Shown here: positions 10,446 through 13,072 of the stretch, piece after piece
Position numbering within the stretch: the first letter of the stretch is position 1
Layout of the letters: each line of letters starts with the position of its first letter
Assembly (NCBI GenBank): GCA_000004695.1
Contig: CM000151.3
Span: 7,936,001-8,000,000 of the forward strand
Source: Dictyostelium discoideum
Taxonomy: Eukaryota
Length of the DNA stretch: 64,000 nt
Reading direction: 5' to 3'
Notes under the pieces: model-generated
What the model was told of the DNA's origin: nothing
The model's input: only the letters and a program-made list of their open reading frames with translations
Databases searched by the model: none
Program-made: the position numbers and the translations under genes

Positions 10446-12797
10446 TTAAGTAAATTTAATATTATAATATTGTTTATTAATTTCAGCTTCACCTTTTCTT
10501 CTTGAAATATCTTTCTTTCTACCACCTTCAACAAATGATTTATGAACATTTTTCATTTTATAGAAAACTTGAATTTCATCATCAGTTGCAGCTTTTTCAA
10601 CTCTTTGTTGTTTATTCTTTATACAAGTGATTAATGGAGCTTCCATTTCTTCTCTTAAGACTTCAAAATTATAGAATTCTTCCCATTGTTCATCAGTATT
10701 ACAAAGAGAACGAATTAATTTTGTGGCTGCTTTAAGATGAAGACGAGATTCCATATACTCTTGTTGTTGAGCTATTTTAGCAGCTTGTTGAGTGAATGCC
10801 ATTGCCAAAATTGAAATATTTGCATTGGAAGTTGATGTATTGAAATCTGGTGTTGCTTGGAGTTGTGCACTGACAACACGTAAACAACGTACACCATCCA
10901 ATTTGGTATATTTAATTTGAATTTGGAATGGATAGATTTGGACAAACTCTGTGGGTCTGTTTCTTGAGGAATAGAGGAGTGTTAAATCAGTTAGGGAATT
11001 GACATTTGGGAATTGTTTAACTACTCTACTTAAACCTTGTTTACTATCGTATTTATTGATTTCCAAAGTTGGATGAAGACAAATACTCATCTCGACATCT
11101 GTTGCAATCATTGGATTTTGAGTTAACTTTCTAATTTCTCTTGCTAATTCCAATGGATGAATAATTGTGATATTACCATTTGTTTGTTCTGAAACTTTAC
11201 CAATTACACCTAAATCAATATGACTACCACTGATACCAATGATATTAATTGTTGTTTTATTATTTTGAGCTAGTTTTGTAACTTTTTCATAAAACTCTTG
11301 AGCAGGACCCAATGGAAGGTCTTCAATTGCACCCAAACCAACATTTGGTACACCATCAGTACAAATTACAACTTCACTCAACATTTTTTGACTTGCAATT
11401 GCAGCACTAACTAATAATGCTGGACCTAATGCAGTTGATTGAACTGGTTCTAATGATTTGATTTTTGCTTTTAAGAAATCACTTGAACCAGATGCAGTTG
11501 GTAATTTATCATAGGTCATTGAACGACCAATTTCAATGAGTTGGTCGAAATCTTCCAATTTATCACCTGCAATTACAATTGGACCATCAACTGAATTACT
11601 TTGAGTGTAAATCATAACCTCGTCAGAGAATGTGACTAATACAACCCTTTTATTTGGATACTGAATTGAAAGACGATCAATCATTGTTGGAATTGATGAT
11701 TGAACACATTCTAATCTTGAAATATATGATGGACCACTAGATGCACCTTTTACACCTTTTTTAGCATTTACCCATTCACTTTGTAATGATGGTACTTCAG
11801 TTGTAATACCCATTGAACCTGAGACATCAATACAGTAAATAATAATTGACTCTTCTCTTTTTGATCCATCAGTTGTTGACGATGTTGATGGTGATGATAA
11901 AACATATTCAACAGAATCTTTATTTGGTATTTCACCTTGTTCTAATAAAATATTGCTGTTACTATATTTACAGAATTCACATTTCCATGTGAAACTATCG
12001 TCACCAGTTTTAACTAAATTTGAAAATCTACTTAAAATAACATTACAACCTTGACAATAAACACAATCACCTGTAATTAATGGTACCTCCTTTGAAAGAT
12101 TTGACATTGAATATGATAGAACATTTGCTTCTAATCTATTTGTTGAAATTTGTCCTGTACGATCAATTGTTGATGGTGAAGCTGCTTGTTGTGGTGATGG
12201 TTGTTTATCTTTACCTGAAAAGATTTTATTAAATAATCCAGTCTTTCCTGACGATGATGAGGAAGATGATGAGGATGATGATGATTTTTTATTTAGACTA
12301 CCACCAATTGGTGGTAAACCAGAGATTGTGACTTGTTTACGATAACTATCTTCAATTGTTGGATCATACTCTTCAACAAAATGATTTTGAATGAATTGAA
12401 TGATAATTGCAGATTTACCAACACCACCACCACCCATTACAACCACTTTGTAAACTGTATTACGTGGTGTGTGACGAACCAATGTAAAGAATGCCTCCTC
12501 AATATTAGATCTAGTTTTAGCAGATGTCTCAATATATGGAACACGTAATGATCTTGCCAATTGGTCTGCTTCAATTCTTGATACTTGTCTTCTTGATTCT
12601 AAATCAACTTTATTACCAACAATAATAATTGGTACATCATCACGATCTTTAACTCTTTCAATATGTTGTTTTAATTGTGAAACTTCTTCAAATGATGATC
12701 TACTATCAATTGAAAATACAATCATAAAACAATCACCAGTTCTAACATATTGATCACCTATAAATAAATAAAATATATAATAAAAACATATTTTTTA

Positions 12798-12831
<34 letters not shown>

Positions 12832-13072
12832 GTGTGATTAATAAATAAAACTTACGCATTGCTGAATATTCTTCTTGACCAGCAGTATCTAAAATATCTA
12901 AAAGTACAGCTTCACCAAAACCTTTTGATGATGAAGATGAACCAGAATTATTTACAAATGATTTTTGAATTGTATCAGTTGTTGTCGTTAAACTCATTTC
13001 ACTTTGTGTGAACCATTCTTTTGGTTTATCAAGATTTGATGTTATATATACATATTTAGTTGGAAATTCCAT
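10446..13072 (-). CDS. circularly permuted Ras-like GTPase fused to a Cys4 zinc-ribbon and a VWA domain (cpRAS-like), two exons, about 841 aa
   Basis: Exons are complement(12857..13072) and complement(10446..12757), with a phase-1 intron at 12758..12856 (GTAAGT...TTATAG). Exon 1 ends ...[21 protein letters not shown] (G3/switch II). Exon 2 continues DQYVRTGDCFMIVFSIDSRSSFEEV...VGNKVDL (G4)...ETSAK (G5)...TLVRH, then a 4-aa linker TPRN, then TVYKVVVMGGGGVGKSAIIIQFIQNHFVEEYDPTIEDSYRKQVT (G1 P-loop and G2/switch I). Each block is about 70-80% identical to Dictyostelium RasG/RasD. Downstream come CVYCQGC...CEFC and a VWA MIDAS motif, IIIYCIDVSGSMG. Confidence 0.75.

Follow-up and report, generated by a model that had tools for sequence, protein, structure and literature searches.

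Does the gene at 10446..13072 in a 64,000-nucleotide stretch of Dictyostelium discoideum DNA (contig CM000151.3, positions 7,936,001 to 8,000,000; the whole stretch is called the window below) encode one Ras domain whose parts stand in swapped order, and what kind of protein carries it? An earlier interpretation made from the letters alone, here the sequence-only reading, had proposed a circularly permuted Ras domain of near-RasG identity, followed by a zinc ribbon and a VWA domain, and had guessed that the gene belongs to the reported cpRAS family. The guess was sound: from its identity and architecture, the gene is almost certainly that of D. discoideum circularly permutated Ras protein 1 (DdiCPRas1; cpRas1 below) of the cpRAS-VWA family, the founding member described by Elias & Novotny (2008, Biol Direct 3:21, PMC2430557). 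Taken as a whole, the data are best explained by this known protein with its Ras domain inserted in a Sec23/24-like protein, a reading that we hold to be very probable.

The gene, its permutation and its family are already known, having been published in 2008 and carried in database names, and as a discovery the present analysis adds little; the family remains a functional problem. What is new is modest, namely the N-terminal peptide with the insertion topology, the beta-sandwich and helical domains that complete a Sec23/24-like core, and a confident full-length model. A Sec23/24-like host with an inserted Ras domain and many Ras-less relatives makes the function more approachable in the tractable Dictyostelium, and the cpRas family is widespread, occurring in Amoebozoa, Heterolobosea, Capsaspora, sponges, molluscs, echinoderms and cephalochordates.

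RESULTS

A Ras domain in swapped order

All features of the gene lie on the minus strand. The G domain, delimited by Pfam Ras, by alignment with H-Ras and by the secondary structure of an AlphaFold2 (AF2) model, covers residues 53-219 (12318..12916, intron included), and its elements follow each other in the order beta3-alpha2-beta4-alpha3-beta5-alpha4-beta6-alpha5-linker-beta1-alpha1-beta2. In phmmer searches of PDB chains, residues 53-169 matched H-Ras 48-163 with an independent E-value (i-E) of about 1e-42, and residues 173-219 matched H-Ras 2-48 with an i-E of about 1e-17. Both ends of the domain (residues 53 and 219) align to H-Ras Gly48 at the tip of the beta2-beta3 hairpin, just where the sequence-only reading had put the breakpoint, while residue 169 aligns to HRAS 163 and residue 173 to HRAS 2, i.e. 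alpha5 is joined directly to beta1. The Pfam search also returned Ras as the best family, at 1e-53 and in two stretches, against 7e-20 for Roc and 4e-7 for Arf, and the best PDB matches were H-Ras. These swapped-order matches are far beyond chance, and they bear out the proposed order G3-G4-G5-linker-G1-G2.

Along the chain, G3 and the start of switch II come first as DTAGQ (residues 62-66, 12875..12889), in which Q66 is aligned with Gln61, the catalytic glutamine of H-Ras. They are followed by G4, NKVD (121-124, 12603..12614), by G5, SAK (151-153, 12516..12524), and by the junction TPRN (169-172, 12459..12470), which leads from alpha5 to beta1 and of which 'TPR' is kept in the family consensus. 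G1, the P-loop GGGGVGKS (181-188, 12411..12434), and G2, the switch I effector loop YDPTIEDSY (203-211, 12342..12368), stand last; the latter is identical to H-Ras 32-40, and switch II is nearly identical to that of classical Ras. Every string quoted in the sequence-only reading was located in the protein, including the block of residues 57-76, TLVRH (164-168), TVYKVVVMGGGGVGKS (173-188) and YDPTIEDSYRKQVT (203-216). No CAAX box was found at the C-terminus of the protein, and the hypervariable tail of Ras is likewise missing.

Conservation was measured across 78 full-length family members. K122, D124, A152, G181, G186, K187, S188 and Y203-D209 (with T206-I207-E208, the 'TIE' of G2) are invariant. 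D62-T-A-G-Q-E-E68 is at least 90% conserved, catalytic glutamine included, and N121-K-x-D124, S151-A-K153 and G181/G183/G186-K187-S188 are invariant or at least 90% conserved. The G domain is also the most conserved part of the protein, with a mean column conservation of 0.66 versus 0.4-0.5 elsewhere. Since the G motifs are kept across the family, the pattern is that of an active GTPase and not of a relic, and we infer that GTP is bound and hydrolysed by the domain as it is by Ras. Moreover, with switch regions that hardly differ from those of H-Ras, the domain should be able to use ordinary Ras guanine nucleotide exchange factors (RasGEFs) and GTPase-activating proteins (RasGAPs), which probably serve it.

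The AF2 model was made on the D. discoideum orthologue P0001 (99% identical, 839 aa) with the 78-sequence alignment, and reached a mean predicted local distance difference test score (pLDDT) of 87.9 and a predicted template modelling score (pTM) of 0.88. The single G domain that the sequence-only reading expected of a structure prediction was obtained with high confidence: every strand and helix of Ras is present in its permuted place, at a pLDDT that is mostly >90 and, as is usual, lower in switch I and switch II. Confidence was low only in two linkers, residues 42-51 and 232-255, the latter with pLDDT <50. With a pTM of 0.88 over 839 residues, the G domain is confidently placed against the core in the model and does not appear to dangle.

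Gene structure

The coding region of cpRas1 (10446..13072, 842 aa and stop) consists of two exons. Exon 1 (12856..13072, 217 nt) starts with an ATG at 13072-13070, encodes residues 1-72 and base 1 of the Arg73 codon, and ends with ...GCA ATG C before GTAAGT. The intron (12758..12855, 98 nt, GTAAGT...ATAG) is in phase 1, lies inside switch II between M72 and D74 and splits the Arg73 codon as C/GT; it shows as a dip in G+C, to about 10-20%, and is very AT-rich. An unspliced reading frame would meet a stop 31 codons into it. The sequence-only reading had correctly seen a phase-1 intron within the Ras domain, but gave it as 12758..12856, one base too long. Exon 2 (10446..12757) is a single uninterrupted open reading frame (ORF) that runs from the remainder of Arg73 through residue 842 to a TAA stop, and holds alpha2 through alpha5, the linker, beta1-alpha1-beta2 and the entire C-terminal half. 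The surroundings are AT-rich with Asn- and Ser-rich coding repeats, as is usual for Dictyostelium.

Orthologues keep the same N-terminus. MEFPTKYVY at the start and a contiguous ...SAMRDQY... are found in D. discoideum strains, D. citrinum and D. purpureum, which supports both the start codon and the splice junction, and both another D. discoideum strain and D. purpureum have an intron at this position and in this phase. In switch II (...EYS-C-M-R-DQY...), the annotated model of the D. purpureum orthologue (GL871012.1; L002:3001-4330) has two phase-1 introns, which a micro-exon of 6 nt (GTATGA) must separate; the second of these introns takes the position of the single D. discoideum intron. 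Two more introns without a D. discoideum counterpart interrupt that gene, one of phase 0 in G2 (DPT/IED) and one of phase 2 in the zinc finger (WKC).

A Sec23/24-like core

Downstream of the Ras domain, a Ser-rich linker of low confidence in pLDDT and poor conservation (residues 220-283, 12126..12317; column conservation 0.27) leads into four domains in the order of Sec23/24: zinc finger, trunk, beta-sandwich and helical domain. The Cys4 zinc finger of Sec23/24 type (304-339, 11958..12065; C307, C310, C332 and C335) was recognised by Pfam, phmmer and conservation, and the VWA/Sec23-24 'trunk' (376-618, 11121..11849) by Pfam, phmmer and Foldseek. The trunk holds a complete metal-ion-dependent adhesion site (MIDAS), assigned by motif and conservation and formed by DVSGS (11814-11828), T514 (11433-11435) and D540 (11355-11357). 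Next come a Sec23/24-like beta-sandwich (about 622-710, 10845..11111; Pfam, phmmer, AF2 and Foldseek) and an all-helical C-terminal domain (about 711-842, 10449..10844; AF2 and conservation) with a conserved ...QYYxIxF tail. In the 78 members, the MIDAS residues D383-x-S385-x-S387, T514 and D540 and the four cysteines are invariant or >=90% conserved, and this conservation is the signature of a functional metal site rather than a relic. Thus, the Cys4 motif and the VWA domain with MIDAS of the sequence-only reading are both present and conserved, though 'VWA domain' understates what is a four-domain Sec23/24-like core.

The relationship was seen by each of three search methods. With residues 279-842 as query, phmmer matched human Sec24A at 4.5e-5 over the trunk and the beta-sandwich, with the zinc finger collinear. 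The top Foldseek matches were Sec24A, Sec23 and Sec24B, with E-values of 7e-25 to 1e-17 over about 560-640 columns, and Pfam gave collinear sub-threshold matches to the Sec23/24 zinc finger, trunk and beta-sandwich. Among the 120 relatives listed, precomputed Pfam assignments name Sec23_trunk in 29, the Sec23/24 zinc finger in 12 and the beta-sandwich in 7.

In COPII, Sec23/Sec24 and Sar1 also pair a small GTPase with this scaffold. However, the GTPase of cpRas1 is of Ras type and not of Sar/Arf type, and is covalently inserted rather than a separate subunit. The MIDAS of cpRas1 is intact, whereas Sec23/24 trunk domains are not known to use a MIDAS metal. Archaeal ArnA/ArnB and bacterial VWA/beta-sandwich proteins (PDB 8s05, 5a8j and 4fx5) resemble the core as well, but they are prokaryotic and have neither a GTPase domain nor such a helical domain. 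Our fold searches also returned Sec23/24-like folds in the Toxoplasma pre-conoid ring (PDB 9ya0 chains) and in the archaeal zinc-ribbon/VWA pair ArnAB (8s05). The scaffold that hosts cpRAS has evidently been reused well beyond COPII.

The N-terminal peptide and the probable insertion of the Ras domain

Residues 1-21 form a conserved N-terminal peptide, MEFPTKYVYITSNLDKPKEWF (13010..13072), which is defined by the family alignment and by two short beta-strands in the model; residues 1-30 are confident there, and the strands reach a pLDDT of up to 96. The family motif at this place is M-E-F-G-S-x-F-V-Y with acidic residues next, and it is also present in relatives without a Ras domain. In its wider form, 'M-E/D/N-F-G/A-S-x-F/Y-V/A-Y' and an acidic run, it is kept across a very large Sec23/24-like VWA family, Ras-bearing or not. 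The peptide may serve for docking, as a strand, or represent a short linear motif of the F-x-x-V type with acidic flanks.

The family of the C-terminal half was collected by an exhaustive phmmer search with residues 270-842, which gave 1,927 cluster representatives with E-values of at most 0.001. A Ras region was not detectable in 106 of 125 additional representatives, i.e. those not already seen. Most full-length Ras-less relatives start with MEFASxFVY, MNFGSKYVY or MDFGSDFVY and an acidic run, and continue with a variable low-complexity stretch of about 80-380 residues and then '...DTNV...LG.L...TGDPxxCxxC', which corresponds to the strands and zinc finger placed after the Ras domain in cpRas1. 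A terminal M-x(1,2)-F-[GAV]-[GSA] was present in 73 of 121 Ras-bearing and 42 of 96 Ras-less proteins, and in 0 of 117 classical Ras proteins. The core motif fell within the first 12 residues in 41 of the 96 Ras-less proteins, compared with 6 occurrences in 63,033 other positions, and a hidden Markov model of the cpRas N-terminus matched 15 of the 96, always from residue 1, with 0 matches on reversed sequences.

Because both the N-terminal peptide and the core occur in Ras-less relatives, the G domain is best read as an insertion, sitting inside the variable linker of a pre-existing protein. Through the permutation, the two ends of the domain become neighbours at the hairpin tip, a geometry that suits an inserted domain; these adjacent ends are likely the reason why the hosts carry a permuted rather than a normal Ras. 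We also considered residues 1-52 as the relic of a first Ras copy (beta1-alpha1-beta2) left by duplication and truncation. This was rejected: the segment is predicted as strand-strand-helix, and its motif occurs in relatives without Ras.

Relation to the published family

Elias & Novotny described the cpRAS domain as G3-G4-G5-G1-G2 with the break between strands 2 and 3, and the cpRAS-VWA proteins as chains of about 840-970 aa in which an N-terminal region (40-66 residues) precedes the Ras domain, while a poorly conserved linker, four cysteines that may form a zinc finger, and a VWA/'Sec23/Sec24 trunk' come after it (PMC2430557). They took the N-terminal region to be poorly conserved and without homology, and the Ras domain to occur 'in combination with' VWA. 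The window protein shows the same series, with an N-terminal region of 1-52, cpRAS at 53-219, the linker at 220-283, Cys4 at 304-339 and VWA at 376-618. DdiCPRas1 (EAL68747.1) comes from the same species group, is of the same length class (842 aa) and has the same part order, and we found no substantive difference between it and the window gene. Later papers cite the Swiss-Prot names Q75J93 for protein 1 and Q54BW4 for protein 2.

The top protein match is a D. discoideum protein 98-99% identical, the closest entry being KAM9965776.1 at 99%; the exact 842-aa sequence had no entry in the protein collection searched. Among the 120 matches listed, there was no second D. discoideum cpRAS-VWA protein. 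Orthologues were found in dictyostelids, in other Amoebozoa (Acanthamoeba, Balamuthia, Pelomyxa and Physarum), in Heterolobosea (Willaertia), in Capsaspora, and among animals in sponges, annelids, molluscs, brachiopods, echinoderms, hemichordates and amphioxus. The database name 'circularly permutated Ras protein 1-like' is attached to many of them, and to hundreds of orthologues overall.

Two other known systems can be set beside it. DdiCPRas2 has the same permuted G domain and is likewise described as an insertion in a larger host, but that host is wholly different, a COG2373/alpha-2-macroglobulin-like protein of 3933 aa, and its gene lies outside the window. The YRG/YlqF/YjeQ GTPases are also naturally circularly permuted P-loop GTPases; their order, however, is G4-G5-G1-G2-G3 with the break between beta3 and alpha2, whereas the window protein has G3 first, and they belong to another GTPase class that is ancient, universal and ribosome-linked. 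A weak Pfam match to RsgA_GTPase (4.4e-6, below the cut-off) arises because the G4-to-G1 order is common to both.

DISCUSSION

Alternative explanations of the locus

The permuted order could in principle be a product of the gene model, with two adjacent Ras genes (or pieces of them), or exons from separate transcripts, joined into one frame so that no single permuted domain exists; in favour of this, the G3-bearing segment (residues 1-72) is on a separate exon from the rest. However, residues 74-842 are one ORF that includes the permuted junction, which is thus not a splice product. As the junction between Ras C-terminus and Ras N-terminus lies inside the uninterrupted exon 2, it cannot stem from a splicing or annotation artefact, and the two halves are not separate adjacent Ras genes, the outcome that the sequence-only reading had named as fatal to it. 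What exon 2 lacks, beta3 and the start of switch II, is precisely what exon 1 provides, in frame and across a canonical GT..AG intron whose position D. purpureum keeps. More than 100 orthologues, from amoebae to echinoderms, show this architecture too, many of them known from transcriptomes, and AF2 builds one G domain at high confidence. An artefact is thus effectively refuted. It is also very improbable that the permuted domain is a pseudo-GTPase, structural only and with nucleotide cycling lost. Earlier authors argued that a broken beta2-beta3 turn impairs folding, but K187/S188, T206, D62, G65, Q66, NKxD and SAK are invariant or >=90% conserved in the 78 sequences, which span Amoebozoa, Heterolobosea and Metazoa, and no part of the protein is more conserved than the G domain. 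The cpRas family contradicts the earlier claim that this permutation is unable to fold.

Another origin to be weighed is a recent derivation from Dictyostelium RasG or RasD, by duplication or by homogenisation through gene conversion, in line with the near-RasG identity claimed by the sequence-only reading. The similarity to classical Ras is indeed high, with switch I identical and switch II nearly so. We put the halves back into the order of classical Ras and used this un-permuted domain as a new query: its best full-length matches were classical Ras proteins spread across the eukaryotes, at 64-71% identity. On one alignment with 115 classical Ras proteins, identity ranged from 63.8 to 70.6% with a median of 66.9%; the three dictyostelid Ras gave 65.0-66.9%, mammalian HRas 66.7% and the best protist Ras 70.6%. 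Since identity to dictyostelid Ras is no higher than to mammalian HRas, there is no special affinity to Dictyostelium Ras, and the claimed nearness to RasG reduces to about two-thirds identity with the classical Ras of any eukaryote. Identity to other cpRAS domains was 68-91% for dictyostelid, about 62-71% for other amoebozoan and only 47-57% for most animal domains. In a neighbour-joining (NJ) tree, 73 un-permuted cpRAS domains split from the 115 classical Ras, though with a bootstrap of only 43/100, and the window domain was nested within dictyostelid cpRAS; weak tree support for this split was likewise obtained in PMC2430557. The permutation and the scaffold are moreover common to several eukaryotic supergroups, and shared as they are, they argue for a single origin of cpRAS. 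Gene conversion from RasG was rejected on the identity figures and the NJ tree, and a recent RasG/RasD derivative of any kind is scarcely credible. The Ras domain looks instead like a slowly evolving, strongly constrained one and not a recent RasG copy. Compared with classical Ras (H-Ras, RasG/RasD), it has about 67% identity once un-permuted and keeps all G motifs; the classical proteins differ in their unpermuted order and in their hypervariable tail and CAAX box, and the cpRas1 domain is embedded in an 842-aa multidomain protein.

Several points weigh against the reading of the locus as known cpRas1 with a Ras domain inserted in a Sec23/24-like protein. The equation with EAL68747.1/Q75J93 is indirect, resting on species, architecture and uniqueness, and the structural model is that of the orthologue P0001 and not of the window protein itself. 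The Pfam scores for the core stay below their cut-offs, at 24.6 bits for Sec23_trunk (cut-off 27), 13.2 for zf-Sec23_Sec24 (25) and 14.3 for Sec23_BS (33.5). A gelsolin-like domain, which COPII Sec23/24 have, gave no Pfam match in cpRas1, and AF2 shows only helices after residue 717 before the protein ends. With the gelsolin domain missing and the Pfam thresholds unreached, the core therefore belongs to a family of its own that is homologous to Sec23/24, and is neither a COPII subunit nor a Sec23/24 orthologue. The Sec23 residues that stimulate Sar1 hydrolysis sit in the gelsolin domain; its absence means that a Sec23-like GTPase-activating mechanism is not simply transferable. Finally, experiments on any cpRas family member were not found in the searchable literature.

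What the protein may do

With the reading as an inserted Ras domain retained, the Ras domain would cycle between GTP and GDP. Since both tethers leave the interswitch hairpin, where they are flanked by switch I and switch II, and since the G domain is rigidly placed on the core in the model, its nucleotide state would likely be coupled to the scaffold in cis. It may then gate ligand binding at the Sec24-like/MIDAS surfaces, or self-assembly, and one chain would do the work of a small GTPase together with a Sec23/24-type adaptor. That the nucleotide state is read out within the same chain is, on the model, a tentative proposal. The G domain could instead bring effectors with Ras-binding (RBD) or Ras-association (RA) domains to whatever the Sec24-like/MIDAS module binds, without signalling in cis. 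RBD-contact residues in Ras-effector structures include D33, I36, E37, D38, S39, Y40 and R41; all of these are retained in the H-Ras alignment, and YDPTIEDSY, identical to H-Ras, is invariant in the family. On the other hand, the pTM of 0.88 suggests a docked and not a free G domain, and the C-terminal tether exits from beta2, the strand with which an RBD pairs, and may hinder docking. Recruitment of effectors is the main alternative mode of action and about as tentative as the cis switch; the two are not mutually exclusive.

The analogy with Sar1-Sec23 is attractive but limited. Carried further, it would make cpRas1 a single-chain analogue of Sar1-Sec23/24, in which an ancestral Sec24-like MIDAS adaptor with a 'MEFGSxFVY-acidic' peptide gained a Ras switch, the permutation was selected for its adjacent ends, and switch movements pass through the tethers to gate binding of cargo or ligand, or self-assembly. 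This whole scenario seems unlikely; if true, it would reveal a module for trafficking or assembly under Ras control that had gone unrecognised and that may date from the last eukaryotic common ancestor (PMC13393502). CPRas is considered possibly part of the ancestral eukaryotic Ras set in that 2026 survey.

As the Ras C-terminus is internal and the CAAX box absent, no lipid anchor is expected, and recruitment to membranes would proceed via partners. The sequence-only reading had suggested a switch for adhesion or ubiquitin-like recruitment. There is no hydrophobic N-terminal signal sequence in the protein, and together with the cytosolic-type Sec23/24-like fold this argues against extracellular adhesion. 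A C-terminal RING finger (PF13920) is carried by 7 of the 120 listed relatives (P0033; P0036, Physarum; P0043; P0046; P0078; P0095; and P0119, Willaertia), and not by the Dictyostelium protein. In some lineages, these RING-bearing relatives hint at a connection with ubiquitin ligases, and they keep a link to ubiquitin conceivable.

Other genes in the window

The neighbouring genes in the window gave no hint of function, as expected for a eukaryote. Convergent with cpras1, and with 127 bp between the two stop codons, lies a 361-aa ORF at 9233-10318 (+) that consists largely of poly-Asn, poly-Asp, Ser/Thr and Pro runs and has no Pfam match; at the corresponding site, another D. discoideum strain has a gene call of 362 aa (L001:12753-13841). 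At lower positions of the window are a tRNA-Thr gene with anticodon AGT (345-416, +) and ORFs with FNIP repeats (707-3058, -; 3.8e-67), with a terpene synthase C-terminal domain (4048-5055, +; 4.3e-15) and with a histone stem-loop-binding (SLBP) RNA-binding domain (5454-6662, -; 4.9e-30); none of these three ordinary neighbours has an evident link to cpras1. At higher positions, the ORFs encode an EGF-like domain protein (19427-22420, -), a protein kinase (24366-26159, +), a homeodomain protein (33118-34662, -), a protein with WD40 and DUF3337 (40869-43718, -) and a large phosphatidylinositol 4-kinase with PI4K_N, PIK and PI3_PI4_kinase domains (54589-60777, +).

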